A stretch of 32,000 nt of DNA from contig NZ_LN831024.1 in assembly GCF_001457615.1 (NCBI RefSeq), forward strand, positions 1,560,001 to 1,592,000, read 5' to 3'. Of the stretch, positions 3,877 to 20,540 are shown one piece after another. How positions within the stretch are numbered: the stretch's first letter is position 1; each line of letters opens with the position of its first letter. Under the pieces are notes generated by a model. The model worked only from the letters and a program-made list of their open reading frames with translations. It had not been told where the DNA came from and did no database searches. The translations under genes and the position numbers were made by a program. The stretch comes from Pseudomonas aeruginosa (GTDB lineage Bacteria; Pseudomonadota; Gammaproteobacteria; Pseudomonadales; Pseudomonadaceae).

Positions 3877-3916
3877 GGTTGCACGCCCGGAGTCGCCTGG
3901 CGCGGCTCCGGGGCGA

Positions 3917-3943: not shown

Positions 3944-4128
3944 GCAGCCCGGTGTGTCCGGGACCGCCGCAGTCGTTTCGTCCCTGTCTGCCTCGGCCTG
4001 AAGTCTTCGCTGCGAAGACCCTCGTCCTTATATAAGCAGGGGAGTTGCTGCGAGCAGAGGTCGAGAGCCTGCGGCACTCGTTCAAGCGAGCGATGTGGCT
4101 GTCAGGAAACCTTCCCCTGTTACCGAAT

Positions 4129-4158
4129 GGAGCAATGTTGCTCCTTGTGTGTGCAACA
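4129..4158. promoter_or_regulatory. Overlapping inverted repeats, candidate upstream activator/operator site
   Basis: GGAGCAA-TG-TTGCTCC (4129-4144) overlaps TGTTGC-N11-GCAACA (4136-4158). The pair is centred about 180 bp upstream of the sigma54-like element at 4316. Confidence 0.2.
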
Positions 4159-4315
4159 ACGCCCCACTTCCCGGAAGCCTGGCGAACCGCGTGAAAACCG
4201 CTCGGAGCGCCTTTCGTCGCAGGATTCCTCGGTAATTCTCCGCGCTTTAATTCAACTCTCTGATTTTAAAAGTTTAATACTCGGAACAAGGCTGTTTCGC
4301 CGGTGAACTTTCATC

Positions 4316-4331
4316 TGGCATGGCTTCTGCA
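4316..4331 (+). promoter_or_regulatory. sigma54 (RpoN)-type -24/-12 promoter element upstream of the ABC/catabolic operon
   Basis: TGGCATGGCTTCTGCA compared with the consensus TGGCACG-N4-TTGCW. GG and GC are at the exact 10-nt spacing. It is correctly oriented, 58 nt upstream of the ATG at 4389, inside the only AT-rich island of the region. Confidence 0.4.
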
Positions 4332-4332
4332 A

Positions 4333-4367
4333 GTTTTATATTTAAAACGATGTTTCATATATAAAAC
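4333..4367. promoter_or_regulatory. Two tandem AT-rich palindromes (GTTT-N8-AAAC), candidate repressor operators (IclR?)
   Basis: GTTTTATATTTAAAAC (4333-4348; 7 of 8 base pairs symmetric) and GTTTCATATATAAAAC (4352-4367; 7 of 8 symmetric), 19 bp centre to centre. They begin 2 nt after the -12 element and span the predicted transcription start. A related site lies at 19010-19024. Confidence 0.4.
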
Positions 4368-4388
4368 AAGACAAGAGGCTTAGTCCAG

Positions 4389-5240
4389 ATGAGAGCGACG
4401 TCGTTGAGCATCCTCACTTCCGAGCATTCGCTACCTGTAGCCGCTCCTGCGGATAGCCGTCTCGAAATCGAATTCCGCGGCGTCGCCAAGCATTTTCCGG
4501 GCCGCGGCAAAAGCGCGGCGACCCTCGCGGTGCAGGGGCTCGACCTGGCCATCCGCCGCGGCGAGGTGGTGTCCATCATCGGGCCGTCCGGTTGCGGCAA
4601 GAGCACCCTGCTGAACATGGGGGCGGGTCTCTACGCACCCAGCGAAGGCGAGGTGCGGGTCGGCGGCGAGCGGGTCAGCGGTCCGGTACGCAAGGTCTCC
4701 TTCATGTTGCAGAAGGACCTGCTGATGCCCTGGCGCAGCATTCGCCGCAACATCGAGCTGGGCCTGGAGATCGACGGTCGCGCGGCCGGCGAACGGCGCG
4801 CCATCGCCGAGGAAATGCTGGAGAAGTGTCACCTCGCCGGTTTCGCCGAGCACTATCCGTTCCAGCTTTCCGGCGGCATGCGCCAACGCGCCGCCCTGGC
4901 CCGAACCCTGGCCACCGACCCGCAGGTGCTGTTCCTCGACGAGCCGTTCTCGGCCCTCGACGCGCAGACCAAGATGATCCTCCAGCAGGACCTGGCGCGG
5001 ATGCTCTGCGAGCAACGCAAGACCGCGCTGTTCATTACCCACGACCTGGTCGAGGCGATCGCCATGTCCGATCGCATCCTGGTGATGAGCGCGCGGCCGG
5101 GCACCATCGTCGAGGAGATCGAGGTCGGCCTGCCGCTGCGCGACAACCCGCTGGAGCGCCGCAAGCTGCCGGAGATCGGGCCGCTGGTCGGGCGCCTGAT
5201 GACCCTGCTGAAAGTGGGCGAGAGCGCCGAGCTGCACTGA
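4389..5240 (+). CDS. ABC transporter ATP-binding protein, NitT/TauT (sulfonate/nitrate/taurine) family
   Basis: Walker A GPSGCGKST, signature LSGGMRQR, Walker B LFLDEPFSALD, H-loop ITHD. AAGAGG lies 10 nt upstream of the ATG. Confidence 0.93.
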   Translation: MRATSLSILTSEHSLPVAAPADSRLEIEFRGVAKHFPGRGKSAATLAVQGLDLAIRRGEVVSIIGPSGCGKSTLLNMGAGLYAPSEGEVRVGGERVSGPVRKVSFMLQKDLLMPWRSIRRNIELGLEIDGRAAGERRAIAEEMLEKCHLAGFAEHYPFQLSGGMRQRAALARTLATDPQVLFLDEPFSALDAQTKMILQQDLARMLCEQRKTALFITHDLVEAIAMSDRILVMSARPGTIVEEIEVGLPLRDNPLERRKLPEIGPLVGRLMTLLKVGESAELH

Positions 5241-5280
5241 TCGCCGCCTGCCGATCCGAATTCCGTTACAGGAGCCGCTG

Positions 5281-6288
5281 ATGTCCAAGTCATTGCTCAA
5301 CGCCGCATTGTGCGGCGCGTTGTTCGCCGCCGGCCTGACCGTCCAGGCCGCCCCGCGGGAAGTCACCTACCTGCTGCCGGCACCGCCGAACTCGCCGGCC
5401 TTCGCACCCTGGGTGATCGCCCGGGAGAAGGGCTACTACGCCGACCTGGGCCTGAAGGTGACCTTCGTCGCCGGCAAGGGCGGGGTCGACGTGGCCAAGC
5501 AGATCGGCGCCGGCAACGCACCGGTCGGCGGCGCCATCGGCGATACGCCGATCGTGGTGCGCGCCAACGGCATCCCGGTGAAAGCCGTGGCGGTGCTCGG
5601 TGCCGGCGGGGTGACCATGATCGCCACCGATGGCACGGCCGGTATCGACAGCGTCAAGGACCTCAAGGGCAAGACCCTGACCGTGATGTCCTACTCCGAC
5701 ACCACCTACTACGCCCTGCTGGCGTCGATGCGCAAGGCTGGCCTGGGCAAGTCCGACGTGGACATCCAGGCGGCCGGCCCATCCGGCGTCTGGCAACTGT
5801 TCTCCGCCGGCCGCTCGCAGGCCATGGCCGGCGTGCCGGACTGGGTGGTGAGTGCCGAGGATGCCGGCCGGCAGGTGAAGTTGCTGCCGGGCAGCGAGGT
5901 GTTCGAGAGCATGGCCCAGGCGATCCTCGCCTCGGACGAGGCCATCGAGAAGCAGCCTGAGGTGGTCGGCGGGGTGGTCAGGGCGACCCTCATGGGCATG
6001 CGCGACATCATCGCCGACCCAAGGCAGGCCGCCGCCACCTTCGCTGCCGCGGTGCCCGCCTACAAGGGCCGCGAGGCCAGCCTGGAACGGGTCCTGCGGC
6101 TCTATGTCGAGCACGTCTACGCCAACCAGCAGCCGCTCGGGCACATCGATCCGCAGCGCCTGGACAAGGTTCGCAGGTTCTACGTCAGCGAAGGCATCGT
6201 CGGCCGCGAGACGCCGCTGGACGAGCTTTACACCAACCGTTTCGTCGAGTCCGCCGACCTGACCGCGCAGCACGGAGCCCGCCCATGA
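5281..6288 (+). CDS. Periplasmic substrate-binding protein, NMT1/SsuA-like (NitT/TauT family)
   Basis: Sec signal peptide ending VQA/AP. AGGAG lies 6 nt upstream. The size and Gly-rich binding-protein pattern fit SsuA/TauA/ThiY-type proteins. The stop overlaps the permease start (ATGA). Confidence 0.85.
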   Translation: MSKSLLNAALCGALFAAGLTVQAAPREVTYLLPAPPNSPAFAPWVIAREKGYYADLGLKVTFVAGKGGVDVAKQIGAGNAPVGGAIGDTPIVVRANGIPVKAVAVLGAGGVTMIATDGTAGIDSVKDLKGKTLTVMSYSDTTYYALLASMRKAGLGKSDVDIQAAGPSGVWQLFSAGRSQAMAGVPDWVVSAEDAGRQVKLLPGSEVFESMAQAILASDEAIEKQPEVVGGVVRATLMGMRDIIADPRQAAATFAAAVPAYKGREASLERVLRLYVEHVYANQQPLGHIDPQRLDKVRRFYVSEGIVGRETPLDELYTNRFVESADLTAQHGARP

Positions 6289-7061
6289 ACCTCTCCACCA
6301 GACCCTTGCTCGGCAGTCTCGCGCTGTTGTTCCTGTTCCTCGCTGCCTGGCAGTGGGGGCCCGGCCTGCTCGGCATGCCCGAGTTCGTCCTGCCGGGGCT
6401 GAGCCGGGTGGCGGCGGAGGGCGTGGCCATGTGGCACGGCGCCGGACTGCTGGAGCACACGGCGATCACCAGCCTGGAGATCGTCGTCGGTTTCGCCCTG
6501 GGCGCGCTGCTTGGCGTGAGCATCGGCGTTGCCCTCGGCCTGTCGCCGACCACCGAGGCCATGCTCTCGCCCTACATCCTGGCGCTGCAGATCGCGCCGA
6601 AGGTGGCCTTCGCCCCGCTGTTCGTGATGTGGCTGGGCTATACGGTGTACCCGAAGATCCTCATCGCCGTGCTGATCGTGTTCTTCCCGGTGATGATCAA
6701 CGTGCTCTCGGCCATCCGCACCGTCGACCCGGACATGATCAACCTGGTGCGCGCGATGAGCGCCAGCCGTTGGCAGATCTTCCGCCTGGTGGAGTTCCCC
6801 TCGGCGATGGCCGCGCTGTTCTCCGGCCTGCGCATCGCCTCCACCCTGGCGGTGATCGGCGTCACCGTCGGCGAGCTGGTGGGCGGCAACAAGGGCCTCG
6901 GCTTCCTGCTGGTGGATGCCGAAGGGCAGGGCAACACCGCCGGGGTGTTCGTCGCCATCGTCATGCTCACCCTGATCGGCGTGCTCGCCTATGGCGCGGT
7001 GGTCTGGGCCGAGAAGCGCGTCCTGCATTACCTGCCGAAAGCCAACCTGGGCACGGTGTGA
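6285..7061 (+). CDS. ABC transporter permease (BPD_transp_1, NitT/TauT family)
   Basis: Six predicted hydrophobic helices. An EAA-type loop is present (MSASRWQIFRLVEFPSAMAALFSGLRIA). The start is coupled to the upstream gene by an ATGA overlap. Confidence 0.9.
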   Translation: MNLSTRPLLGSLALLFLFLAAWQWGPGLLGMPEFVLPGLSRVAAEGVAMWHGAGLLEHTAITSLEIVVGFALGALLGVSIGVALGLSPTTEAMLSPYILALQIAPKVAFAPLFVMWLGYTVYPKILIAVLIVFFPVMINVLSAIRTVDPDMINLVRAMSASRWQIFRLVEFPSAMAALFSGLRIASTLAVIGVTVGELVGGNKGLGFLLVDAEGQGNTAGVFVAIVMLTLIGVLAYGAVVWAEKRVLHYLPKANLGTV

Positions 7062-7066
7062 ACGCC

Positions 7067-7828
7067 ATGAGCCAGAACTCTCTTCTCGACGGTCGCCGCG
7101 TGCTCCTCACCGGCGGCGCCCGCGGCCTCGGCTACGCCTTCGCCGAAGCGGCGGCACGCGCCGGCGCCCGGGTGGTGATCGCCGACATCCTGGAGGAACG
7201 CGTGCAGCGCTCCGCCCGTGAACTCGCCGAGCAGGGCCTGGATATCAGCGGCCTGCCACTGGACCTGGCCGACCCGGTTTCGATCGAGCGCTGCGTGGCC
7301 GCGGCGGTCGAGCGCCTGGGCGGTCTCGACGGCCTGGTGAACAACGCCTCCATCACCAACTCCGGCGGCAAGAGCTGCGAAGAACTGGAGATCGAGGTGT
7401 TCGACCGGGTGCTCCAGGTCAACGTGCGCGGCACCTGGCTGATGACCCGTGCCTGCCTGCCGGCGCTGCGCGAGTCCGGACGTGGCGCGGTGGTCAACCT
7501 GGCCTCCGACACCCCGCTGTGGGGCGCGCCCAACCTGCTCGCCTACAGCGCCAGCAAGGGCGCGCTGATCGCCATGACCCGCAGCCTGGCCCGCGAGCTG
7601 GGCGGCGACGGCATCACCGTCAACGCCATCGCTCCCGGACTGGTGGAGGTCGAGGCCACCGAGTACGTGCCGGCCGCCCGCCACCGGCTCTACCGCGAGC
7701 AGCGCGCGCTCCAGCGCGGCCAACAGCCGGCGGATGTCTGCGGCGCGGTGCTGTTCGCCCTTTCCGACCTTTCCCGCTTCATCACTGGACAAACCTTGCC
7801 GGTCAACGGCGGGTTCGTCATGCCCTGA
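7067..7828 (+). CDS. Classical short-chain dehydrogenase/reductase
   Basis: Motifs TGGARGLG, NNAS and the catalytic YSASK. The ATG lies 5 nt after the permease stop. The track ORF from 6353 is an upstream in-frame extension. Confidence 0.9.
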   Translation: MSQNSLLDGRRVLLTGGARGLGYAFAEAAARAGARVVIADILEERVQRSARELAEQGLDISGLPLDLADPVSIERCVAAAVERLGGLDGLVNNASITNSGGKSCEELEIEVFDRVLQVNVRGTWLMTRACLPALRESGRGAVVNLASDTPLWGAPNLLAYSASKGALIAMTRSLARELGGDGITVNAIAPGLVEVEATEYVPAARHRLYREQRALQRGQQPADVCGAVLFALSDLSRFITGQTLPVNGGFVMP

Positions 7829-7841
7829 TCCGGAGGACTCC

Positions 7842-8372
7842 ATGACCGATCTGAACCAGAACGCCCCGAAATCCTGGGACCGCCCCGAAGGCGCCAGCTT
7901 CGAGGAGTGGTGCAACACCCGCATCGCCCGTTACTCCACCCGCAAGTACGACTGGAACGCGCTGAAGTTCCAGGCCGACTACGACCCCAGGTTCCGCCGC
8001 GCGCAGATGCGCTACATCGGCACCGGCGGCACCGGTGTGGCCAGTGACATGAACACCATTCCGTCCGAGCACTTCACCTTTTCCACCATGGTCATCCCGG
8101 CGGGTCACGAAGGCCCGCCGCACCTGCACATCGACGTCGAGGAAGTGTTCTTCGTCCTGCGCGGCAAGCTCAAGGTGGTGCTGGAGAAGGACGGCGAGCG
8201 CTTCGAGACCATCCTCACCGACCGCGACGTGATTTCCGTGCCGCCGGGCGTGTACCGCGAGGAGATCAACATCGGCGACGAGGATGCGCTGATGTGCGTG
8301 ATGCTCGGTGCGAAGAAGCCGATCACCCCGACCTACCCGCCGGAGCACCCTCTGGCGAGCATCAAGCGCTGA
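7842..8372 (+). CDS. Cupin-domain protein (metal-binding, function unknown)
   Basis: GGAGGA lies 4 nt upstream of the ATG at 7842. Cupin motif 1 is AGHEGPPHLHIDVEEVFFVLRG. Motif 2 (PPGVYREEIN) lacks the usual His. Confidence 0.85.
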   Translation: MTDLNQNAPKSWDRPEGASFEEWCNTRIARYSTRKYDWNALKFQADYDPRFRRAQMRYIGTGGTGVASDMNTIPSEHFTFSTMVIPAGHEGPPHLHIDVEEVFFVLRGKLKVVLEKDGERFETILTDRDVISVPPGVYREEINIGDEDALMCVMLGAKKPITPTYPPEHPLASIKR

Positions 8373-8380
8373 GGCCGCCG

Positions 8381-9250
8381 ATGAACATGGCGCAGACCCA
8401 CACCCCCGTCCCGAACCTGCAACAGCGCTTTCCCGAGCGGCTGGTGCAACTGGCCGACGGCGCCCAGCTGGCCATCCGCGAATGCGGCCAGGGCCCGGTG
8501 GTGGTGCTGTTGCACGGCATCGGTTCGGGCTCGGCGTCCTGGCTGCATTGCGCCCAGCGCCTGGCCGCCGGCAATCGGGTGATCGCCTGGGACGCGCCGG
8601 GTTACGGCCTGTCCACGCCGCTGCCGCCGGCCCGGCCCAAGGCCTGCGACTACGCCGCGTGCCTGGAGCTGCTGCTGGATGCGCTGGGCGTGGAGAGCTG
8701 CCTGCTGGTGGGCCACTCCCTCGGCGCGCTGATGGCCACGGCCTACGCCGCCGGCATCGGCGCGGCGCGGGTGCGCCGCCTGGTGCTGCTCAGCCCGGCG
8801 CGCGGCTACGGCGCCGCCGAGCTGCGCGACAGCGGCGCCCAGGTGCGCCGCCAGCGCCTGGAGAACCTGGAGCGCTTCGGTATCGACGGCATGGCCAGCG
8901 AGCGCACCGCGCGCCTGCTCGGCCGCAACCCCAGCGAGGAGGCCCTGGCCTGGGTGCGCTGGAACATGGCGCGGCTCAACCCCGAGGGCTACCGCCAGGC
9001 CGTCGAGCTGCTCTGCGGCGACGACCTGCTGGGCAACGGGCAGCCTGCCGCTCCTTGCGAGGTGCATTGCGGCGAGGACGACGGCATCACCACGCCCGAG
9101 AGTTGCGGCGCCATCGCCCGCCAGCTCGGCGCGTCGTTCTCGTCGATTCCCGGGGCCGGCCACGCCAGCCCGATCGAACAACCCGAAGTGGTCGCAGGAC
9201 GCATCGGCCACGCGCAACGCCTCTCTCTTGAAGGAACCGCCAATGGATAA
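8381..9250 (+). CDS. Alpha/beta-fold hydrolase (C-C hydrolase / enol-lactonase-like)
   Basis: Oxyanion HG (LLHGIGSG), nucleophile elbow GHSLG, C-terminal GAGHASPIE histidine. The ATG at 8381 is 8 nt after the cupin stop. Confidence 0.88.
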   Translation: MNMAQTHTPVPNLQQRFPERLVQLADGAQLAIRECGQGPVVVLLHGIGSGSASWLHCAQRLAAGNRVIAWDAPGYGLSTPLPPARPKACDYAACLELLLDALGVESCLLVGHSLGALMATAYAAGIGAARVRRLVLLSPARGYGAAELRDSGAQVRRQRLENLERFGIDGMASERTARLLGRNPSEEALAWVRWNMARLNPEGYRQAVELLCGDDLLGNGQPAAPCEVHCGEDDGITTPESCGAIARQLGASFSSIPGAGHASPIEQPEVVAGRIGHAQRLSLEGTANG

Positions 9251-10076
9251 GTCAGACGATTCGCAAGACAAGTACATCGTGCCTGGCCTCGAACGCGGCC
9301 TGCTGCTGCTCTGCGAGTTCAGCCGGAAGGACCGTACCCTGACGGCGCCGGAGTTGGCGCGGCGCCTGAAGCTGCCGCGCTCGACCATCTTCCGCCTGCT
9401 GACCACCCTGGAGGCCATGGGCTTCGTCACCCGCAACGGCAACGAGTACCGCCTGGGCATGGCGGTGTTGCGCCTGGGCTTCGAGTACCTGGCCTCGCTG
9501 GAGCTGACCGAACTCGGCCAGCCGCTGCTGAACCGCCTGTGCGACGAGATCCGCTACCCCTGCAACCTGGTGGTGCGCGACGGCCGTTCGATCGTCTACG
9601 TGGCCAAGGTTTCGCCGTCCACCCCGCTGAGCAGCTCGGTGAACGTCGGGACCCGGTTGCCGGCCCACGCCACGGTGCTCGGCCGCATCCTGCTGCAGGA
9701 CCTGAGCCTGGGCGAGCTGCGCGAGCTGTACCCGGAGGAGCAGCTGGAGCAGTTCTCGCCGAACACCCCGCGCAGCGTGCTGGAACTCTTCGACATGGTC
9801 CAGGGCGACCGCCAGCGTGGCTTCGTCCAGGGCGAGGGGTTCTTCGAGGCGAGCATCTCCACCGTCGCGGCGCCGGTACGTGATCACAGCGGTCGCGTCA
9901 TCGCGGCGATGGGGGCGACCATCGCCGCCGGGCATATCGACCCGGAACGCATCGAGGGACTGGTCAGCCGGGTGCGCAGCAGCGCCGACGAGCTGTCGTA
10001 CCTGCTCGACTACCGCGCCGACGGCCAGGACAACGTTACCCCGATCTTCCGGAGTCGCCCGCATGAAACCGTATGA
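9243..10076 (+). CDS. IclR-family transcriptional regulator, embedded in the operon
   Basis: N-terminal winged HTH (LTAPELARRLKLPRSTIFRLLTTLEAMGFV) plus a C-terminal IclR effector domain. AAGGAA lies 6 nt upstream of the ATG at 9243. The gene overlaps the upstream gene by 8 nt and the downstream gene by 14 nt. Confidence 0.9.
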   Translation: MDKSDDSQDKYIVPGLERGLLLLCEFSRKDRTLTAPELARRLKLPRSTIFRLLTTLEAMGFVTRNGNEYRLGMAVLRLGFEYLASLELTELGQPLLNRLCDEIRYPCNLVVRDGRSIVYVAKVSPSTPLSSSVNVGTRLPAHATVLGRILLQDLSLGELRELYPEEQLEQFSPNTPRSVLELFDMVQGDRQRGFVQGEGFFEASISTVAAPVRDHSGRVIAAMGATIAAGHIDPERIEGLVSRVRSSADELSYLLDYRADGQDNVTPIFRSRPHETV

Positions 10077-12535: not shown

Positions 12536-12545
12536 GGCTCTCGCC

Positions 12546-13349: not shown

Positions 13350-13360
13350 GGACGACTACC

Positions 13361-14845
13361 GTGATTGACCTGAACCCGATCCAACCCATCTGCATCGCCG
13401 GCGAGTGGCGAGCGGGCGGCGGCGACCTCTACGAAAGCCTCTATCCGGCCACCGGCGAGGCCGTCGCCCGCCTGCATGCGGCCAGCCTGGAGGACGTGGA
13501 GGAAGCCATGGCCGGCGCCCACCGCGCCTTCCGTGAGAGCGGCTGGGCCCAGCGCAAGCCTCATGAGCGGGCCACCGTGCTTTATCGTATCGCCGCGCTG
13601 ATCCGCGAGCGCAGCGAAGAACTGGCGCAGTTGCAGCGCCTGGACAACGGCAAGCCGATCAGGGAAACCCGCAACCTGGTGGCCAGCGCCGCCGCCACCT
13701 TCCAGTTCTTCGCCGCCGCCTGCGAGACCCTGGAGGAAAGCATCACGCCGTCGCGCGGCGACTTCGTCAGCATGAGCGTGTACGAGCCCATGGGCGTGGT
13801 GGTTGCCATCACCCCGTGGAACTCGCCCATCGCCTCCGAGGCGCAGAAGCTCGCCCCGGCCCTGGCCGCCGGCAACGCGGTGGTGGTCAAGCCGGCCGAG
13901 ATCACCCCGCTGGCCGCCCTGGCGCTGGCGCGCATCTGCGATGAGGCCGGCCTGCCGCGTGGGCTGGTCAGCGTGCTGCCGGGCAAGGGCGCGCTGATCG
14001 GCGATGCCCTGACCCGCCACCCCCTGGCCAGGCGCGTGTCCTTCACCGGCGGCACCCGCACCGGCAAGCACATCGCGCGCATCGCCGCCGACAAGATGAT
14101 GCCGGTGTCCCTGGAACTGGGCGGCAAGTCGCCGACCATGGTGCTGGCCGACGCCGATCTCGACCACGCGGTGGCCGGCGTGCTCTATGGCATCTTCAGT
14201 TCCAGCGGCGAATCCTGCATTGCCGGCTCGCGGTTGTTCGTCGCCAGCGAGCGCTACGACGAATTCATGGAGCGCCTGGCCACCGGCGCCGCGGCCCTGC
14301 GCGTCGGCAACCCGGCCGACGAGCGCACCCAGATGGGCCCGCTGATCAGCGCGCGGCACCGCGAGTCGGTGGAGCGCTATGTCGAGATGGGCGTGGCCGA
14401 GGGCGGTCGCCTGCGCACGGGGGGCGTACGTCCCCATGGCGCAGCCTTCGATCGTGGCTACTTCTACACCCCGACCATCATCGAAGGCCTCACCAACGAC
14501 GCCCGCCTGTGCCAGGAGGAAGTCTTCGGCCCGGTGCTGGTGGCCATGCCTTTCGACAGCGAAGAGGCCCTGATCGAAGAGGCCAACGACAGCTGCTACG
14601 CGCTGGCCGCCGGCATCTGGACACGCGACTTCCAGCGCGCCTGGCGGCTCGGCCGCGCCGTGCAGGCCGGCACCGTGTGGATCAACACCTACAAGCAGTT
14701 CTCCATCTCCACCCCCTTCGGCGGCTGGCGCGACAGCGGCCTGGGCCGCGAAAAGGGCCGCCTGGGGATACTCCAGTACATGGAGCAGAAGAGCCTCTAC
14801 TGGGGCCTGAACGAACAGCCGCTGGCCTGGGCCGGCAGCCACTGA
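13361..14845 (+). CDS. NAD(P)-dependent aldehyde dehydrogenase
   Basis: Motifs ELGGKSP (catalytic Glu) and GESCIAGSR (catalytic Cys), plus FGGWRDSGLGRE. GTG at 13361 is the first plausible start after the upstream stop, with AGGGA 8 nt upstream. The track ORF from 12752 is an extension. Confidence 0.88.
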   Translation: MIDLNPIQPICIAGEWRAGGGDLYESLYPATGEAVARLHAASLEDVEEAMAGAHRAFRESGWAQRKPHERATVLYRIAALIRERSEELAQLQRLDNGKPIRETRNLVASAAATFQFFAAACETLEESITPSRGDFVSMSVYEPMGVVVAITPWNSPIASEAQKLAPALAAGNAVVVKPAEITPLAALALARICDEAGLPRGLVSVLPGKGALIGDALTRHPLARRVSFTGGTRTGKHIARIAADKMMPVSLELGGKSPTMVLADADLDHAVAGVLYGIFSSSGESCIAGSRLFVASERYDEFMERLATGAAALRVGNPADERTQMGPLISARHRESVERYVEMGVAEGGRLRTGGVRPHGAAFDRGYFYTPTIIEGLTNDARLCQEEVFGPVLVAMPFDSEEALIEEANDSCYALAAGIWTRDFQRAWRLGRAVQAGTVWINTYKQFSISTPFGGWRDSGLGREKGRLGILQYMEQKSLYWGLNEQPLAWAGSH

Positions 14846-14858
14846 TGAGGAAGACGCG

Positions 14859-15824
14859 ATGAGCGTATCGGGAATCGACGAAATCACCTACGGCGTGGAA
14901 GACCTGGCCACCAGCGCGCGTTTCTTCGCCGACTGGGGCCTGGCGCAGGTCGAGGCGAGCGAGGACCAGGTGGTCTTCGAAAGCCTCAACGGCTGCCGCG
15001 TGATAGTCGCGGCGCGGGACAAGCCCGGCCTGCCGCCGGCCATCGAGGAAGGCTCGACCCTGCGTGAAGTGGTTTGGGGCGTGGAGAGCGAGGCGGACCT
15101 CAAGCTGTACGCCGAGCGCATCGCCAATGATCCCGGCTTCATCGAGGGCGAGGGCCGTATCGGCTGCACCGACCCGAACGGTCTGGCCGTGCGCTTGCAG
15201 GTCACCCGTAAACGCGACATCCAGGTGGCCTGCGGCCAGTCCAACACCTGGCAGTTCAAGGGCCGGATCAACCAGGCCAGCCCCATCTACGAACGTGCGC
15301 AGCCCGTCGAAGTCGGCCACGTGGTGTTCTTCGTCAAGGACGTCAACGCCTGCGAACGCTTCTACCGCGAGCGCTTCGGCTTCGTCTGCTCCGATCGCTA
15401 TCCGAATCGCGGCGCCTTCCTGCGTTGCGCGGAGGAGGGCGGCCACCACGACCTGTTCATGCTGCAACTGCCGCAACCGCGCGCCGGCCTGAACCACGTG
15501 GCGTTCACCGTGCGCGATATCCATGAGGTGTTCGGCGGCGGCATGCACATCGCCCGCTGCGGCTGGGATACCGAGATCGGCCCGGGTCGGCATCCGGTGT
15601 CCTCGGCGTACTTCTGGTACTTCCGGAACCCCGCCGGCGCCCTCGTCGAGTACTACGCCGACGAGGACCAACTGACCGGCGAGTGGCAGGCCCGCGAGTT
15701 CGAACCTGGCCCTACGGTATTCGCCGAATGGGCCATCGCCGGTGGCCTGGACGGCAATACCCGGCGACAGAAAAGCGTCGAGGCACCGCAGGGCCGGTTC
15801 CTCACCGACAAACCCAGGAGTTGA
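14859..15824 (+). CDS. Two-domain VOC (glyoxalase/extradiol dioxygenase) family protein
   Basis: Duplicated VOC modules. The C-terminal module carries HVVFFV, NHVAFTV and VEYYADE, candidate His/His/Glu metal ligands. GAGGAAG lies upstream of the ATG. Confidence 0.8.
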   Translation: MSVSGIDEITYGVEDLATSARFFADWGLAQVEASEDQVVFESLNGCRVIVAARDKPGLPPAIEEGSTLREVVWGVESEADLKLYAERIANDPGFIEGEGRIGCTDPNGLAVRLQVTRKRDIQVACGQSNTWQFKGRINQASPIYERAQPVEVGHVVFFVKDVNACERFYRERFGFVCSDRYPNRGAFLRCAEEGGHHDLFMLQLPQPRAGLNHVAFTVRDIHEVFGGGMHIARCGWDTEIGPGRHPVSSAYFWYFRNPAGALVEYYADEDQLTGEWQAREFEPGPTVFAEWAIAGGLDGNTRRQKSVEAPQGRFLTDKPRS

Positions 15825-15831
15825 GACGAGC

Positions 15832-16149
15832 ATGAGCGACACCTTGTTGCTGACCGTGCTGCTCCGGCACGACCAGTCGAAGAATCTCGACGAGATCCAG
15901 GCCCGCATGAAGGCCATGGACTGGTGGGAGCGCTTTCCGGGAGAGGGCGTGGCGATCGTTTCTTGGACCGTCGCCATGGGCCTCGGCCAGATCGTCACCC
16001 TGCGCCTGCCGCCGGCCCTGCTGCCACGCGTCAACGTCGAACTGGAGCGCTCCGCCTGGGGCGTGTTCCGCACCGAATGCTACCCGACCTACGACTTCGT
16101 CCCGGTTCGCGAAACCATCCGCGAACGGGTCCGCACTGGAGGCCAATGA
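15832..16149 (+). CDS. Small hypothetical protein (105 aa)
   Basis: High GC3 throughout. AGGAG lies upstream of the ATG at 15832. It sits 7 nt after the dioxygenase gene and 1 nt before the next gene. I recognise no motif. Confidence 0.7.
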   Translation: MSDTLLLTVLLRHDQSKNLDEIQARMKAMDWWERFPGEGVAIVSWTVAMGLGQIVTLRLPPALLPRVNVELERSAWGVFRTECYPTYDFVPVRETIRERVRTGGQ

Positions 16150-16150
16150 C

Positions 16151-16369
16151 ATGCAAGACCGTTACCTCGAACCCCATCAGGCCCGTACCCGCGAGCCGAA
16201 CGCCTTCGAAGACCTGCTCGGCGATTCCATCGAGCGCGCCTACGCCGCCGGCCTGCACGACCTGCCGGGGCTGCTCGGCTACCTCAACCAGGCCGGCCCG
16301 ACCTGCCCGGGCGGCGGTCCCTGGACCGAGGAAGCCTACAAGACCCTGATGGCCCGCCTGGGCGCGTGA
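16151..16369 (+). CDS. Small hypothetical protein (72 aa)
   Basis: High GC3. GGAGG lies 8 nt upstream of the ATG at 16151. A C-terminal GGGPWTEEAYKTLMARLG segment resembles recombinase-like HTH mini-domains, but this is a weak impression. Confidence 0.65.
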   Translation: MQDRYLEPHQARTREPNAFEDLLGDSIERAYAAGLHDLPGLLGYLNQAGPTCPGGGPWTEEAYKTLMARLGA

Positions 16370-16391
16370 ATTCCCCCGAGAGGAAACCGCT

Positions 16392-17411
16392 ATGAGCACC
16401 GTGAACCCTGTTGAACAGCTTCTCGCCAACGGCCTGAAGAACCTCTGGTACCCGATCTGCCCGGTGGGCTTCATCGAGGACAAGCCGGTGTCCCTGCGCC
16501 GCCTGGGCTACAAGCTGGCCGTCTGGCGCGATACCGACGGCACCCTGCATGCCCTCGAAGACCATTGCCCGCACCGTGGCGCGCCGCTGTCGCGCGGGGT
16601 GAACCTGGGCGACCGCCTGCAATGCCCCTACCACGGCGTGGAAGTGCGCTGCGACGGCGTTACCGCCCGCGTGCCCGGCAGCCCCGGCTGCAAGCTGGAA
16701 GGCAGCCAGGCCACGCGCTTCTTCCACATCACCGAGGCGGCCGGCGCCGTGTGGCTGTACAACTCGGCGGGCAATGTCGAGGAAGCCCCGCCGCTGGTGC
16801 TGCCCGAGCAACTGACCGACCCCGAGTTTTCCCACTTCCTCTGCTATACCGAGTGGCGCGGCGACTACCGCTACGTGCTGGACAACGTCATGGACCCCAT
16901 GCACGGCACCTACCTGCACAAGCAGTCGCACTCCATGTCCGAGGGCGAAAGCCAGGCACGCTTCGTCACCCGCGACACCGACACCGGCTTCATCTTCGAG
17001 AAGGACGGCCAGCGCGGGGTCAACTTCGACTGGACCGAATGGGCCGACACCGGGATGCACTGGATGCGCCTGGAGATTCCCTATCCGAAGACCGGCGGCC
17101 CGGGTGGCAACTTCCATATCGTCGGCAGTTACACGCCGATCGCCCGCGACCTCTGCGCGGTGTTCCACTGGCGTTGCCGGCCGCTCACCGGCTGGCAGCG
17201 TGACACCTGGCGGTTCCTCTACAGGAACCGCCTGGAGGCGCGTCACTGGGCGGTGCTGGAGCAGGACCGGGAAATGCTCGAATTCATGGAGCCGGACGCC
17301 AACCAGCGGGAGAACCTCTACCAGCACGACCTCGGCCTGGTGCGCCTGCGGCGGCACCTGAAGAACCTGGCCAAGGCCCAGCTGGAACTGATCGAGGCCC
17401 GGCAACTGTGA
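16392..17411 (+). CDS. Rieske [2Fe-2S] non-haem iron oxygenase, alpha subunit only (class IA, VanA/TsaM/KshA-like)
   Basis: Rieske motif CPHRGAPLS..(N)..CPYHG. Mononuclear iron motif DPMHGTYLH. 339 aa with no beta-subunit gene. GAGAGGA lies upstream of the ATG. Confidence 0.9.
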   Translation: MSTVNPVEQLLANGLKNLWYPICPVGFIEDKPVSLRRLGYKLAVWRDTDGTLHALEDHCPHRGAPLSRGVNLGDRLQCPYHGVEVRCDGVTARVPGSPGCKLEGSQATRFFHITEAAGAVWLYNSAGNVEEAPPLVLPEQLTDPEFSHFLCYTEWRGDYRYVLDNVMDPMHGTYLHKQSHSMSEGESQARFVTRDTDTGFIFEKDGQRGVNFDWTEWADTGMHWMRLEIPYPKTGGPGGNFHIVGSYTPIARDLCAVFHWRCRPLTGWQRDTWRFLYRNRLEARHWAVLEQDREMLEFMEPDANQRENLYQHDLGLVRLRRHLKNLAKAQLELIEARQL

Positions 17412-17842
17412 CCGCCGTACGCCGGATCCGCGCCGCGGCGCTACCCGACCTGCCGGATGCAAGCTGGTCCAATGCCCTGCTGGTGGGAGAGGAGCTGGTG
17501 ATGTCCGGCATGACCGCGCACCCGGCCACCCGCCAGGCCGCCGAGCGCGGCGCCGCGCTCGACGCCCATGCCCAGGCCCTGGTGGTGCTGGGCAAGGTGA
17601 AGGCGCTGCTGGAGGCGGCGGGAGGCCATGTCGGCAACCTCTACAAGCTCAACGTCTACGTCACCCGCATCGCCGACAAGGACGCTATTGGGCGCGCGCG
17701 GCAGGAGTTCTTCGCCGGCCAGGGCACTTTTCCCGCCTCCACCCTGGTCGAGGTGAGCGGCCTGGTGTTTCCCGAACTGCTGGTGGAGATCGACGCCTGG
17801 GCGCGCCTCGATATCGACCTGGCGAACTGCGACGAAGCCTGA
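17408..17842 (+). CDS. RidA/YjgF/endoribonuclease L-PSP family protein (enamine/imine deaminase-like)
   Basis: The GTG start overlaps the Rieske stop (GTGA). The 144-aa length and the C-terminal PASTLVEVSGLVFPELLVEIDAWA pattern are typical of RidA proteins. Confidence 0.8.
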   Translation: MTAVRRIRAAALPDLPDASWSNALLVGEELVMSGMTAHPATRQAAERGAALDAHAQALVVLGKVKALLEAAGGHVGNLYKLNVYVTRIADKDAIGRARQEFFAGQGTFPASTLVEVSGLVFPELLVEIDAWARLDIDLANCDEA

Positions 17843-17856
17843 AAGCGAGGTAGAAG

Positions 17857-18813
17857 ATGACTCACGACAACAGACTGGCGGCCTTCGTCCATACCCTGCG
17901 CTTCGAGGCGCAGGGTATCCTCGGCGTCGAACTGCGCCCGCAGGGCGACCAGGTCTTTCCGCCATTCAGCGCCGGCGCGCATATCGACCTGCACCTGCCC
18001 AACGGCCTGGTGCGCAGCTACTCGCTGCTCAACTCGCCGGAGGACTGCGGCCGCTATGTGCTCGGCATCCTGCGTGATCGCGGCAGCCGCGGCGGCTCCG
18101 CGTTCGTCCACGATAGCCTGCGGGTCGGCATGCAATTGCAGATATCCCGGCCGCGCAACCTGTTCCCGCTGGAGGAAAACGCTGCGCACAGCGTACTGGT
18201 GGCCGGTGGCATCGGCGTGACGCCGATCTACTGCATGTTCAACCGCCTGCGTGCGCTGGGACGTTCGGTGGAACTGCTCTACTGCGCGCGCTCGCGCCAG
18301 GAAGCCGCCTTCGTCGAAGAACTGGCCGCCAGCGATGCCGCTATCCAGCTGCATTTCGACGACGAGAAGGGCGGCCCCATGGATCTCGGCGCCTTCCTTG
18401 GCGCACGGGCGTCCACCGCGCATTTCTACTGTTGCGGGCCGACCCCGATGATCGATGCCTTCGAGACGCACTGCGAACGCCTTGGCCATCCGCATGTGCA
18501 CATCGAGCGCTTCGCCGCCGCGCCCCAGGCCCCGGCGGCGCCCCAGGGCAGCTACGAAGTGCGCCTGGCGCGCAGCGGCACGAGCATCGAGGTGCCGAGC
18601 GGCAAGTCGTTGCTCGACGCCCTGCTGGAAGCTGGCGTGGTGGTCGATTGCAGTTGCCGCGAGGGCGTTTGCGGTTCCTGCGAGACCCGTGTGCTGGAAG
18701 GCGAGCCGGAGCATCGCGACGGCGTCCTGACCAAGGCGGAAAAGATCGCCAACCAGACCATGATGGTCTGCGTGTCCGGCTGCAAGGGATCGCGCCTGGT
18801 GCTCGACCTCTGA
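17857..18813 (+). CDS. Phthalate-dioxygenase-reductase-type oxidoreductase (FMN + NAD + C-terminal plant-type 2Fe-2S)
   Basis: Flavin motif RSYSL, NAD motif VAGGIGVTP, ferredoxin motif CREGVCGSCETRV...C. GCGAGG lies upstream of the ATG. Confidence 0.9.
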   Translation: MTHDNRLAAFVHTLRFEAQGILGVELRPQGDQVFPPFSAGAHIDLHLPNGLVRSYSLLNSPEDCGRYVLGILRDRGSRGGSAFVHDSLRVGMQLQISRPRNLFPLEENAAHSVLVAGGIGVTPIYCMFNRLRALGRSVELLYCARSRQEAAFVEELAASDAAIQLHFDDEKGGPMDLGAFLGARASTAHFYCCGPTPMIDAFETHCERLGHPHVHIERFAAAPQAPAAPQGSYEVRLARSGTSIEVPSGKSLLDALLEAGVVVDCSCREGVCGSCETRVLEGEPEHRDGVLTKAEKIANQTMMVCVSGCKGSRLVLDL

Positions 18814-18841
18814 TCCCCGGTTATTCCCGCGTTGCCTTTGG

Positions 18842-18869
18842 ACCGGCGTTTGTAACGCCGGTTTTTTTT
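18842..18869 (+). terminator. Rho-independent terminator of the 17-gene operon
   Basis: ACCGGCGTT (18842-18850) pairs perfectly with AACGCCGGT (18854-18862) around a 3-nt loop. T7-8 follows immediately. The hairpin begins 29 nt after the stop codon. Confidence 0.85.
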
Positions 18870-19009
18870 GCCTGGGGATCGAGCCCGGCCAAGGCTGGAA
18901 TAGCGTTCCGGGGGGACGAAAAGTGTCACCGTGATCTTTCTACGCACCCGCTTCGGGCGTTTTCGTTACCTTGCCAAGAGCCTGTTTCGAGGGTGAAAAG
19001 AAGTTGCGC

Positions 19010-19024
19010 GTTTAATATATAAAC
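19010..19024. promoter_or_regulatory. AT-rich palindrome GTTTA-N5-TAAAC related to the 4333-4367 sites
   Basis: GTTTAATATATAAAC shares the core ATATATAAA(A)CAA with 4357-4370. It is centred about 55 bp upstream of the sigma54-like GG at 19072. Confidence 0.35.
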
Positions 19025-19070
19025 AACTGTATTTAAAGGATTTTTTTGTTTTATGAGATTGTTCTTGCAC

Positions 19071-19086
19071 TGGCATGGTTAATGCT
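19071..19086 (+). promoter_or_regulatory. Second sigma54-type -24/-12 element, upstream of the porin gene
   Basis: TGGCATGGTTAATGCT has GG and GC at the correct spacing and the same TGGCATGG head as the 4316 site. It would give a leader of about 185 nt. Confidence 0.35.
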
Positions 19087-19281
19087 CGAAACGTTGTGCC
19101 GCATATGAAACGAAGTGCGGAGCGATAACACAACCGAGGCCGTTCCGACGGCCGGGAAAAATAAAAAACAAGAGCAACCGGAAACCAACTATCCAAGGCC
19201 ACCCGCGCTGTCGGCGAAGTTCGCCGAAGGGGTTCGGCTTGCTCGAAAAAACGCTGCCTTGGCGCACTCGCAGACGAGGTC

Positions 19282-20502
19282 ATGATGAAAACCCATCCGC
19301 TGTTCCCCGTACTTCTTCTTTCCAGTCTTTCGGCCCTGGCCGCTTCGCCGCCGTCCGAGGCGTCGAAGACCGGCAAGCCTTTCCCGCATGTCGGCCTGCG
19401 CAGCGACGACGGGCGCAGCAGCCTGGATATCGGCGGCGCGCTGCGGGTGAACTACCGCGACGAACACTGGAAGAGCACGGAAAACAATGGCCGCCTACTG
19501 TTCGATACCTTCCGCCTGGATATCCAGGCAACCCACGAGGACTTCTTTTCCGACCTCGGCTACTGGTTCCAGGACGACGGCAAGCGGGCCATCGACCGCG
19601 GCTTCGTCGGCTATCGCTTCAGCGACCTATCCAGCCTGCAATTGGGCGCGCCGTTCAAGCCGTTCGGCCTGGAGCCCTATCCGCAGTTCGGCTGGAGCTA
19701 CCACATCCCGTTCTTCCTGGGCTACGGGGTCAGCGCCGGCAGCGGCGCCAAGTACGTCTACAAGGACGCCGACTGGCATGTCCAGGCCGGCTATTTCCCA
19801 CGGATGCTGCCGGGCGGTGTGCGCTATTCGCCGGAAGTCGGCCGTTATACCGACCTGGACGACAACGCGGTCGCGGCGATTCATTCGCGGCAGGACAACG
19901 AGAAACGTGACCAGCTCAACCTGCGGGTCGCCCGTAATCTCGCCGGAGATGGCTGGAAAAGCGAGTTGGGCGCGTCGCTGGCGGCCTCGCGCCTGTACAA
20001 CGCGACCACCAGGGACGATGGCCGCTACTGGGCGGCGGGGTTGCATGGCGTGCTCAACGCCGGCAACTGGACGTTCAGCGGCGAAGCCATTCGCTACGCT
20101 TTCGATCCGAAGAACCCGGCGGGCGTCAGCGACGACGTGGTACTCATGGGTACCAACGGCCTGACCCCGGCCTACCTGATGGCCGCCAGGGCCTCGGTGG
20201 CGTCCTTCAACGTCGCCTACGACGTGCCGACGCCGAACCTGGGCATGCTGAAGAAGCTGCGCTTCTACAACGACTACAGCCGCATGTTCAAGGACAAGGC
20301 CGGCTGGGACGACTCGCAGATGTATACCGCAGGGGTGCAGTTCTTCGCCTTGCCGATCATGGGCTGGCTGGACTTCACCTGGGGACGCAACGCCAATCCC
20401 TACGGCGGTGCCGAGAGCGGCACGGGCTTCAGCAGCACCAGTTCGTCGCGCAGCAACGAGTGGATATTCCGCACCAACCTGAACATCGGCTACTACTTCT
20501 GA
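19282..20502 (+). CDS. Outer-membrane beta-barrel (porin-like) protein
   Basis: Signal peptide (LLLSSLSALAASP). Alternating amphipathic strands rich in Y/G/N. C-terminal NLNIGYYF with a terminal Phe, typical of OMPs. The second ATG at 19285 has better spacing to GAGG (19276-19279), so the start may be 19285. Confidence 0.85.
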   Translation: MMKTHPLFPVLLLSSLSALAASPPSEASKTGKPFPHVGLRSDDGRSSLDIGGALRVNYRDEHWKSTENNGRLLFDTFRLDIQATHEDFFSDLGYWFQDDGKRAIDRGFVGYRFSDLSSLQLGAPFKPFGLEPYPQFGWSYHIPFFLGYGVSAGSGAKYVYKDADWHVQAGYFPRMLPGGVRYSPEVGRYTDLDDNAVAAIHSRQDNEKRDQLNLRVARNLAGDGWKSELGASLAASRLYNATTRDDGRYWAAGLHGVLNAGNWTFSGEAIRYAFDPKNPAGVSDDVVLMGTNGLTPAYLMAARASVASFNVAYDVPTPNLGMLKKLRFYNDYSRMFKDKAGWDDSQMYTAGVQFFALPIMGWLDFTWGRNANPYGGAESGTGFSSTSSSRSNEWIFRTNLNIGYYF

Positions 20503-20517: not shown

Positions 20518-20540
20518 AAGCCCCGCCAATTGCGGGGCTT
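20518..20540. terminator. Bidirectional intrinsic terminator between convergent genes
   Basis: AAGCCCCGC (20518-20526) pairs with GCGGGGCTT (20532-20540). A6 on the + side gives a T-run for the minus-strand small gene. The T-tract for the + strand is weaker. Confidence 0.7.

Follow-up and report, generated by a model that had tools for sequence, protein, structure and literature searches.

We consider here a stretch of 32,000 nucleotides from Pseudomonas aeruginosa (contig NZ_LN831024.1, positions 1,560,001 to 1,592,000 of the forward strand), called the window in what follows. It carries a tightly packed block of seventeen genes, g01 to g17, all on the + strand, followed by a separate gene for an outer-membrane channel, g18. 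This is the region PA3514 to PA3497 of P. aeruginosa. The PAO1 numbering is anchored by two proteins of known structure, the RidA-like protein (PDB 2IG8, 'PA3499') and the second of two short-chain dehydrogenases/reductases (SDRs; PDB 3LF1, 'Q9HYA2'). An initial annotation of the same DNA had proposed this synteny, which is borne out by the two structures, by the flanking genes and by published gene descriptions. Indeed, a preprint presents PA3507, PA3508 and PA3512 as an SDR, a regulator and a component of an ATP-binding cassette (ABC) system, and treats PA3504 to PA3514 as one operon. Transposon mutants of PAO1 in the PA3514-PA3497 block have already been used in published work. We propose that the region is a substrate-inducible catabolic operon, most likely devoted to kynurenate (4-hydroxyquinoline-2-carboxylate) and its 'quinoline pathway', a reading to which we give an even chance.

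The seventeen open reading frames span positions 4389 to 18813, with a G+C content at third codon positions (GC3) of 0.84 to 0.94. With start codons picked by conservation and ribosome-binding sites, the intergenic distances within g01-g17 range from -14 to +40 nt and there are five start/stop overlaps (six if the TTG at 9228 is taken as the start of the regulator gene g07). A scan of the window gave no internal terminator or promoter signal above background between g01 and g17. The G+C content, about 0.69 over the window, falls to 0.52 at 4001-4500, upstream of g01, and an intrinsic terminator lies 3′ of g17 (18840-18872, +), made of a stem-loop with 11 pairs in its stem, then T8. The channel gene g18 begins 468 nt after the end of g17. 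Thus the seventeen same-strand genes of the initial annotation, their bracketing by an AT-rich island and a terminator, the separate gene for an outer-membrane beta-barrel and the view of the whole as one operon-like unit with an associated channel all stand. So do its protein family calls, every one of which was reproduced with the family libraries used (Pfam and NCBIfam; together with the PDB, as of June 2026, these supply generic names only). It had given gaps of 1 to 40 nt and six overlaps: the tight packing is confirmed, the figures are replaced by those above.

For comparison with other bacteria, one genome per species was scanned with the thiamine diphosphate (ThDP)-dependent protein g09. 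At least 558 species have a relative, and 80 of these relatives, each with 10-kb flanks, make up the set of loci used below. A Rieske oxygenase system is prominent in the gene content. The alpha-only oxygenase g15 (PA3500; 16392-17411, +; Rieske and VanA_C domains) carries the motifs CPHRG..CxYHG and DNVxDPMHGxxLH, near-invariant in about 80 orthologues. The reductase g17 (PA3498; 17857-18813, +), of the phthalate dioxygenase reductase (PDR) type, has a Fer2 domain at residues 237-307 together with NAD_binding_1 and DmmA-like_N domains. No gene for an oxygenase beta subunit was found among the open reading frames of the window or in the gene-order maps. The pair g15/g17 thus belongs to class IA of Rieske systems: alpha-only, with CxH..CxxH, a His-His-carboxylate site and a single-polypeptide flavin/[2Fe-2S] reductase. 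Directly upstream of the Rieske gene in all loci, including those of Acinetobacter, Klebsiella and Novosphingobium, and even where the electron-transfer partners differ, lies g14 (PA3501; 16151-16369, +), which encodes a protein of 72 residues belonging to the family HTH_62 (PF20552, 108 bits). In its AlphaFold2 model it is a bundle of three helices, which no known structure matched significantly, and the search for homologues returned close orthologues only; genes of the g14 type are found elsewhere in loci L088 (1862-2161), L089 (1243-1551) and L091 (21038-21358). This 'recombinase-like' protein may assist the oxygenase in a way so far unrecognised, or act as a small regulator. The classical SDR g04 (PA3511; 7067-7828, +; PF13561/PF00106), with its YxxxK intact, overlaps the Rieske gene in Cupriavidus, Acinetobacter and Klebsiella, and would be the cis-dihydrodiol dehydrogenase of the system.

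The product of g12 (PA3503; 14859-15824, +; PF00903, VOC) is a two-domain type I extradiol dioxygenase, in which H154, H213, E264 and the pair H196-H197 are invariant in 80 orthologues. It is remote to HPCD and C23O, and its alignment with catechol 2,3-dioxygenase covers residues 9-276. The atypical SDR g08 (PA3507; Q9HYA2, PDB 3LF1/3LF2; 10063-10860, +; 571 bits to 3LF1) has T-S-A-A-R where SDRs carry YxxxK, and it lacks the complete Ser-Tyr-Lys set of classical SDRs. The TxxxR centre of Q9HYA2 has been remarked on in the literature; being invariant in 80 orthologues, it is a conserved functional feature, not the product of decay. We propose that g08 is a C=C reductase acting on an oxopropenyl side chain. 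Its gene overlaps by 8 nt that of the ThDP enzyme g09 (PA3506; 10853-12535, +), with three TPP domains (NF005470, 928 bits), whose one equivalog match, PRK07064, is uncharacterised. The nearest functionally named family of g09, at rank 3 behind two uncharacterised ones, is that of 5-guanidino-2-oxopentanoate (2-ketoarginine) decarboxylase. This protein has thousands of relatives, with 75-94% identity in Beta- and Gammaproteobacteria and 75-80% for those in Betaproteobacteria alone, and it is our proposed 2-oxo-acid decarboxylase.

Next come an aspartate dehydrogenase (AspDH), g10 (PA3505; 12546-13349, +; Asp_DH_C PF01958), which matches the equivalog NF009827 with 479 bits for a cut-off of 226, and an aldehyde dehydrogenase (ALDH), g11 (PA3504; 13361-14845, +; PF00171, 562 bits), which begins with GTG and has BADH and HpaE as closest families, both under cut-off. 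The AspDH gene is present in every cluster looked at. Its product, reported to be active as an aspartate dehydrogenase in vitro, is proposed for an iminoaspartate/aspartate step. The cupin g05 (PA3510; 7842-8372, +; Cupin_2) has a motif GHEGPxHxH..EE near-invariant in 77 orthologues. Its nearest PDB entry is the quercetinase QueD, a weak match (26 bits) in which the motif-2 histidine of g05 is not evident; g05 would be a ring-cleaving dioxygenase for a dihydroxypicolinate intermediate. The alpha/beta-hydrolase g06 (PA3509; 8381-9250, +), where GHSLG, Asp and His are conserved, would act on an amide or a C-C bond. Two accessory genes complete this list, namely g16 (PA3499; 17408-17842, +; 304 bits to 2IG8), for an imine/enamine deaminase of the RidA family, and g13 (PA3502; 15832-16149, +), for a protein of 105 residues without any Pfam or NCBIfam match even at E<=10. 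Relatives of g13 fall in 453 representative clusters and make up a small unnamed family; a tandem-duplicated form of its domain (245-270 residues) occurs elsewhere. The two genes g13 and g16 are present together or absent together in every locus, which suggests that their products are a working pair. Searches of the PDB with the Rieske, VOC, ThDP, cupin, hydrolase and AspDH proteins and with the periplasmic binding protein g02 returned remote relatives only (DdmC, phthalate dioxygenase and others in the case of g15).

Genes for uptake stand at both ends of the unit. The first three encode the ATPase g01 (PA3514; 4389-5240, +; PF00005), the periplasmic binding protein g02, of the NMT1/SsuA type (PA3513; 5281-6288, +; PF09084), and the permease g03 (PA3512; 6285-7061, +; PF00528) of an accessory ABC importer. 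The nearest families of g01 are of the TauB, SaoA and NrtCD types, all under cut-off. Likewise, g02 scores 101 bits against SsuA_fam (cut-off 163.5) and 41 against TauA (cut-off 304), and falls outside the SsuA, TauA and NrtA families, matching only the broad NMT1 fold family. This importer is kept in Pseudomonas, Herbaspirillum, Massilia and Pusillimonas; elsewhere it is exchanged for a member of the aromatic-acid/H+ symporter family of the major facilitator superfamily (MFS; 23 loci), for an ACS-type MFS protein (7 loci) or for systems with TctC binding proteins (22 loci), and g01 is missing where an MFS or a tripartite tricarboxylate transporter (TTT) takes over. A Vibrio version uses a tripartite ATP-independent periplasmic (TRAP) system. 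Counting the ABC type, two MFS types, TTT and TRAP, five non-homologous importer types thus serve the same cluster. The initial annotation had taken a 'sulfonate-family importer' as a clue to the substrate; with an importer this interchangeable and g02 far under the SsuA and TauA cut-offs, that clue is lost.

The outer-membrane channel g18 (PA3497; 19282-20502, +; 406 residues) has a signal peptide, a C-terminal ...GYYF and a fold like that of OprP, OprO and DcaP. Its AlphaFold2 model is a confident beta-barrel (pLDDT 85.9), for which Foldseek gives OprP as top match (2o4v, E 1e-13, TM 0.62); the anion channels OprP and OprO come first among its structural neighbours, then OmpT, DcaP and general porins. 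Despite this OprP-like fold g18 has no Pfam or NCBIfam match even at E<=10, and only 169 homologues are detectable. Barrels of the g18 type are found in the Pseudomonas loci, and a copy 46% identical lies within the A. baumannii cluster; in 53 betaproteobacterial loci a Porin_4 porin adjoins the cluster. An interchangeable importer and a porin that is nearly always adjacent point to an aromatic carboxylate as substrate and not to a sulfonate. Homologues of g18 in Raoultella and Serratia (53-56% identical) are stand-alone genes in unrelated neighbourhoods, and this context makes them uninformative about the substrate.

The control region provides a further link between the operon and its channel. 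A sigma-54-type -24/-12 element, TGGCATGG-N4-TGC, at 4316-4330 (+) is the candidate promoter of the operon, and a second one, TGGCATGGTTAATGC, lies 5′ of g18 at 19071-19085 (+). The exact pattern TGGCATGG-N4-TGC is found twice in the window, at 4316 and 19071, for 0.05 expected. In the looser form TGGCAY-N6-TGC it precedes the first gene in all Pseudomonas loci inspected and in three of four Herbaspirillum-type loci (Oxalobacteraceae), and the element 5′ of g18 is also kept in other Pseudomonas loci. With GG at -24, GC at -12, the proper spacing and conservation across species, these elements have the features of sigma-54 promoters; the only hit of a sigma-70 scan overlaps the element at 4316-4330. 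Next to it, at 4333-4367 (+), are two palindromes, GTTTTATATTTAAAAC and GTTTCATATATAAAAC, candidate operators for the IclR-family regulator g07 (PA3508; 9243-10076, +; HTH_IclR and IclR_C), which scores 176 bits against the PcaR/PcaU/PobR subfamily (cut-off 285). An operator-like palindrome, GTTTAATATATAAAC, is found 5′ of the porin promoter, at 19010-19025 (+). The palindrome GTTTyATATATrAAAC thus occurs three times in the window (4333, 4352 and 19010), for none expected. It is kept 5′ of cluster, porin or transporter genes in Pseudomonas, Herbaspirillum, Massilia, Collimonas, Cupriavidus, Ralstonia and Eoetvoesiella (Alcaligenaceae), and it is also present 5′ of a paralogous IclR gene in Cupriavidus. 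It is likely to be the operator of g07. Relative to the promoter, the palindromes are found on the 3′ side at g01 but on the 5′ side at g18. Since the palindromic, and the sigma-54-type, elements are shared, we take g18 to be co-regulated with the operon, which lends support to the 'own porin' of the initial annotation; g07, the sole regulator encoded in the cluster, would control both sigma-54-type promoters through these palindromes. A 16-nt motif found 5′ of both promoters, CTGTTTCG-NN-GGTGAA, was dropped, as it is not conserved in other species.

What travels together in evolution was established by tblastn of all 18 proteins against the 80 loci and by gene-order maps. Twelve genes, g04-g12, g14, g15 and g17, form a core found in essentially every locus, mostly in the same order. 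Core-bearing loci belong to Pseudomonas, Cupriavidus, Ralstonia, Herbaspirillum, Collimonas, Massilia, Polaromonas and Pusillimonas; outside the core are the ABC genes, the g13/g16 pair and the Pseudomonas-type porin. The core enzymes are also found, with 40-67% identity, in A. baumannii, Klebsiella pneumoniae, Burkholderia cenocepacia and Novosphingobium. Those of A. baumannii and K. pneumoniae come with a Rieske-type ferredoxin and a reductase containing flavin adenine dinucleotide (FAD) instead of g17. In B. cenocepacia the core runs from the Rieske to the VOC gene, with no reductase match in the stretch searched, and Novosphingobium has a similar set. Such co-inheritance across taxa rules out a chance juxtaposition of modules. 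Where the initial annotation saw three modules combined, we find one co-inherited core of 12 genes in Gamma- and Betaproteobacteria, with enzymes recurring in Alphaproteobacteria. Neighbourhood and co-occurrence, which it had named as a check, turn out to speak for its operon as a unit, through the core, and against its sulfonate importer, which is not conserved.

Variants of the cluster deserve mention in their own right. In 26 loci, about one-third, the extradiol gene is followed by a gene, missing from the window, for an FAD monooxygenase of the 3-hydroxybenzoate-6-hydroxylase/salicylate-hydroxylase type (for example L008, 14984-16144, and L058, 14857-16116). In several Cupriavidus a molybdenum (Mo) hydroxylase is encoded next to the cluster, together with an IclR paralogue 78% identical to that of the cluster. 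On the C. pauculus plasmid NZ_CP033971.1 (L087, 23896-28541; similarly L001, 18424-21734), a second IclR gene, a TctC gene and the genes of a two-subunit Mo-hydroxylase come after the cluster, with the palindrome in front; there, the whole unit is carried by a conjugative plasmid and ends at an integrase. Finally, a plasmid of Vibrio nigripulchritudo (L092, 10747-24085) has the cupin, hydrolase, VOC, atypical SDR, ThDP, AspDH, ALDH and IclR genes along with TRAP genes, and no annotated Rieske system.

Families, active sites, co-inheritance, exchangeable transporters and shared cis-elements are matters of observation; from here on, for the substrate and for every step, we infer, as there is no characterised orthologue to name the substrate. 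The transporters and a regulator resembling PcaR and PobR suggest an anionic aromatic acid. Further constraints are the Rieske system with its adjacent classical SDR, the extradiol dioxygenase, the block of atypical SDR, ThDP enzyme, AspDH and ALDH in place of the usual hydratase-aldolase, the cupin, the hydrolase, the AspDH and the optional RidA. The kynurenate 'quinoline' pathway follows the order of intermediates given below, with EC 1.14.99.2, 1.3.1.18 and 1.13.11.10 as activities; this classical pathway of Pseudomonas is said to go back to Hayaishi, Taniuchi and Horibata, about 1961-63. We know of no genes for these three activities. Literature on kynurenate catabolic genes, the quinoline pathway and dihydroxykynurenate yielded no gene assignment, and no reference sequences for the three activities were found in the libraries or literature searched; enzyme classes alone were compared. 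A literature search by PAO1 locus tag gave no substrate, only incidental mentions (a phage-sensitivity screen, a GlpR transcriptome, a table of small RNAs, dN/dS values). The statement of the initial annotation that no characterised pathway accounts for these genes therefore holds at the gene level, with no orthologue in the PDB, Pfam, NCBIfam or the literature; for the chemistry it probably does not, as the kynurenate pathway fits.

The route that we propose would begin with passage of kynurenate through the porin g18, then through the ABC importer g01-g03. The oxygenase g15 and its reductase g17, possibly with g14, would make 7,8-dihydro-7,8-dihydroxykynurenate, which the SDR g04 would convert to 7,8-dihydroxykynurenate. 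Opening of the benzene ring by g12 would then give 5-(3-carboxy-3-oxopropenyl)-4,6-dihydroxypicolinate. The atypical SDR g08 would reduce the double bond of the side chain, yielding the oxopropyl compound, a 2-oxo acid that the ThDP enzyme g09 would decarboxylate, and the ALDH g11 would oxidise the resulting aldehyde to 5-(2-carboxyethyl)-4,6-dihydroxypicolinate. At this point, the eighth of the route, the cupin g05 would use O2 to cleave the beta-dicarbonyl-like pyridone ring between C4 and C5. Hydrolysis of the N1-C6 amide by g06, step 9, would release 2-oxoglutarate and iminoaspartate (aminofumarate). In step 10 the AspDH g10 would turn iminoaspartate into L-aspartate, or else RidA g16, with g13, would turn it into oxaloacetate and NH3. 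In terms of carbon bookkeeping, 2-oxoglutarate would comprise the side chain with C5 and C6, and iminoaspartate the C2-carboxyl, C2, C3, C4 and N. The formulae balance: C9H9NO6 + O2 + H2O -> C5H6O5 + C4H5NO4. The predicted iminoaspartate would explain why the cluster has AspDH and RidA genes.

Several observations are consistent with kynurenate as substrate. A suitable enzyme class was found for each of its documented steps: Rieske oxygenase with reductase, SDR, extradiol dioxygenase, atypical SDR, ThDP enzyme and ALDH. The catalytic motifs of the Rieske oxygenase, the extradiol dioxygenase, the cupin and the hydrolase are intact, and the functionally named family closest to g09 is that of a long-chain 2-oxo-acid decarboxylase. 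The proposed route finds work for every core enzyme, and its consecutive steps correspond to adjacent or overlapping genes, g08 and g09 here, the Rieske and SDR genes in other genomes. The absence of a Tyr/Lys dyad in g08 and the translational coupling of its gene to g09 would suit a reduction that does not bear on a carbonyl, followed by decarboxylation. Five importer types, one of them in the aromatic-acid/H+ symporter family, and a near-constant porin fit an aromatic carboxylate. Two-subunit Mo-hydroxylases of the type found in Cupriavidus hydroxylate N-heterocycles, and this one might supply the pathway with a precursor, quinaldate for instance. No rival substrate assignment came out of the family libraries, the PDB or the literature. 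The names of four compounds of the route are confirmed, among them 7,8-dihydroxykynurenate, the 3-carboxy-3-oxopropyl compound and 2-carboxyethyl-4,6-dihydroxypicolinate, which are recognised as belonging to tryptophan metabolism; those of the dihydrodiol and of the oxopropenyl compound are not. Kynurenate is known to be degraded by pseudomonads, with glutamate and alanine as reported end products, and a review of 2024 still cites only work from 1961 on the matter. According to a review, kynurenic acid as sole carbon source supports growth of A. baumannii; ATCC 19606 and AYE are strains with this reported growth. Strains of this species carry the cluster with a g18-type porin, and they are not the same strains as the reported growers.

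Other facts weigh against this assignment. It rests on chemical fit and on one cross-genus growth correlation, taken from a review. When kynU is deleted in P. aeruginosa CHA, kynurenic acid builds up to about 100 µM in LB medium, so that in this medium the strain does not use it up; the build-up could be due to catabolite repression or to a lack of induction. Steps 8 to 10, with the split into 2-oxoglutarate and oxaloacetate or aspartate, are predictions from work of the 1960s and from carbon bookkeeping, and go beyond what is documented biochemically. In none of the 80 loci do kynA, kynB or the aminotransferase gene adjoin the cluster, and neither g13 nor g14 has an assigned role. No enhancer-binding (AAA+) activator is encoded in the window, and sigma-54-type promoters need one; it may be encoded elsewhere in the genome. 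As the Vibrio version is without a Rieske system, at least some versions of the pathway start from a different, already hydroxylated substrate.

This last point introduces what we see as the most serious alternative, namely that the same enzyme logic is applied to another aromatic or N-heteroaromatic carboxylate, be it xanthurenate, quinaldate, another hydroxyquinoline or indole carboxylate, or an amino-aromatic acid. Everything that argues for an aromatic carboxylate applies equally to these compounds, substrate specificity is not fixed by sequence alone, and the FAD monooxygenase of 26 loci and the Mo-hydroxylase of Cupriavidus suggest that several related substrates are funnelled in. The Vibrio cluster without a Rieske system also speaks for this alternative. 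Yet no other pathway known to us follows extradiol cleavage with double-bond reduction, decarboxylation of a 2-oxo acid and oxidation of an aldehyde and goes on to the skeleton of aspartate, and growth of A. baumannii on kynurenate matches the presence of the cluster. We regard this alternative as unlikely, while leaving it a substantial place.

A sulfonate appears to be very improbable as substrate. In the composite suggested by the initial annotation, a methyl group of an aryl or alkyl sulfonate or a similar compound, brought in by a sulfonate-family ABC importer, would be oxidised in the manner of the tsa system by a Rieske monooxygenase, an SDR alcohol dehydrogenase and an ALDH, after which meta-cleavage would meet an amino/2-oxo-acid branch. 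It is true that at the family level the parts list is that of tsaMBCD plus a porin, and that the closest families for the ABC components are TauB, SsuC and SaoP. But every score against a sulfonate family is far under cut-off, most genomes import with carboxylate-type MFS, TTT or TRAP systems, and the gene set contains no desulfonating enzyme. Moreover, the ALDH gene always sits in the block of ThDP and AspDH genes, and the classical SDR gene adjoins or overlaps the Rieske gene as those of dihydrodiol dehydrogenases do. TsaC (8sy8) matches g08 with 98 bits, ranked among generic SDRs, and no NCBIfam or PDB match links g15 to a TsaM-type oxygenase: the tsa analogy is one of families, not of orthologues. 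That unrelated transcription units simply lie side by side, AspDH serving NAD biosynthesis, is in our view extremely improbable. A divergently transcribed Rieske block in two Alcaligenaceae loci (Pusillimonas and Eoetvoesiella), a permuted gene order in Cupriavidus and the Gene Ontology tag 'NAD biosynthetic process' that PGAP puts on AspDH would favour it. However, the core is co-inherited over several bacterial orders despite these rearrangements, AspDH is never absent from it, the spacing is that of an operon with no internal signals above background, and one operator motif is common to the promoters of operon and porin. Two narrower ideas were also discarded. A route from cysteate to sulfopyruvate and sulfoacetaldehyde by AspDH, the ThDP enzyme and ALDH offers no explanation for the Rieske, VOC, cupin or hydrolase gene, and the importer varies from genome to genome. 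An Ehrlich-type route for aromatic amino acids does not agree with an AspDH that is a true equivalog of the aspartate type, nor with a ThDP enzyme similar to acetohydroxyacid synthase (AHAS) and AruI, not to indolepyruvate decarboxylase.

With kynurenate retained as the preferred substrate, the operon would be the missing gene set of the kynurenate branch of bacterial tryptophan catabolism, and would add several functions to those described for enzymes: a cupin dioxygenase able to open the ring of a 4,6-dihydroxypyridine, a catabolic AspDH working on ring-derived iminoaspartate, an ene-reductase SDR with a TxxxR centre and a mini-protein of the HTH_62 family accompanying a Rieske oxygenase. 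We put forward this larger claim tentatively, with a chance just short of even. If it is true, genes are supplied for a pathway whose biochemistry was established in Pseudomonas over 60 years ago, and the 'non-NadB' AspDHs known from Pseudomonas, Cupriavidus and Polaromonas, on which work has otherwise been limited to biocatalysis, find their first physiological rationale. Kynurenic acid has been described as an immunomodulatory metabolite of tryptophan and a ligand of the aryl-hydrocarbon receptor. As opportunists that have the cluster in common, P. aeruginosa, A. baumannii, K. pneumoniae and the B. cepacia complex could consume it, which, if true, would be of consequence for host-pathogen metabolism. 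Should the substrate be another one, the 12-gene core would still be a sizeable unannotated pathway, with relatives in at least 558 species. In any case we have here a concrete and well-conserved locus, with crystal structures for two proteins (2IG8 and 3LF1).

The surroundings of the operon call for a few remarks. Upstream are two adenylosuccinate-lyase-like genes and a methyltransferase gene; downstream are nth, the rnf genes, the gene of Tse3 and metG. A G+C-rich hairpin at 20518-20540, 16 nt past the stop codon of g18, has its T-run on the - strand, as terminator of the convergent gene nth, and possibly works in either direction. The - strand open reading frame at 27916-30021 has 701 codons, of which only residues 295-625 match the domains of Tse3, a muramidase of the type VI secretion system, so that the true start of this protein is probably internal. 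In an RNA-seq study, a 358-nt small RNA, 'PA3514.1/pant326' (PAO1 3,930,282-3,930,639), was found 10-fold up in biofilms, with no orthologue in PA14. By its name and its PAO1 coordinates, which are not mapped onto the window, it should be located in the 512-nt intergenic region upstream of g01 (about 3877-4388), where a small hairpin is found at 4129-4144. Rfam gave no match anywhere in the window, including that region.

Comparison with known systems helps place this operon. With the phthalate dioxygenase system it shares the alpha-only Rieske component, the single-polypeptide flavin/[2Fe-2S] reductase, the adjacent dehydrogenase and, if we are right, an aromatic carboxylate as substrate; the relationship is remote, however (E about 1e-14), the HTH_62 protein is an addition here, and the downstream chemistry is unlike. 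With tsaMBCD/tsaT of Comamonas it shares a list of parts (Rieske oxygenase, reductase, SDR, ALDH and porin) without orthology, without any sulfonate-specific feature and with an importer that is not conserved. In the arginine transaminase pathway, AruI (2-ketoarginine decarboxylase) and KauB convert a 2-oxo acid to an aldehyde and then to a carboxylate by means of a ThDP decarboxylase of the AHAS superfamily and an ALDH. The AruI family is the nearest functionally named one for g09, which, at 250 bits for a cut-off of 500, is not a member, and whose proposed substrate is a pyridine-substituted 2-oxo acid. The nic cluster of P. putida, for catabolism of an N-heteroaromatic acid, likewise has a ring-cleaving dioxygenase, an alpha/beta-hydrolase acting on an N-acyl product, the porin NicP and a two-subunit Mo-hydroxylase; its ring-cleavage families are different, and it has no Rieske, extradiol, ThDP or AspDH genes. 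Cupins such as QueD, the best PDB match to g05, and Dke1 are, like g05, small single-domain metal proteins, and they cleave enolised dicarbonyls; the very weak score and a motif-2 histidine that is not evident set g05 apart from them.

Each protein of the operon is thus ordinary at the family level, and its closest analogues at the gene level (phthalate dioxygenase, tsaMBCD, AruI/KauB and nic) share sub-modules only. As a system it comes nearest, in terms of described biochemistry, to the kynurenate pathway. We know of no gene linked to the activities of this pathway, its last ring-opening steps were never defined enzymatically, and its link to the operon is the one we propose. The types and the order of its reactions match the gene content one for one, from the NADH/O2-dependent formation of a dihydrodiol down to end products in the glutamate and alanine families.

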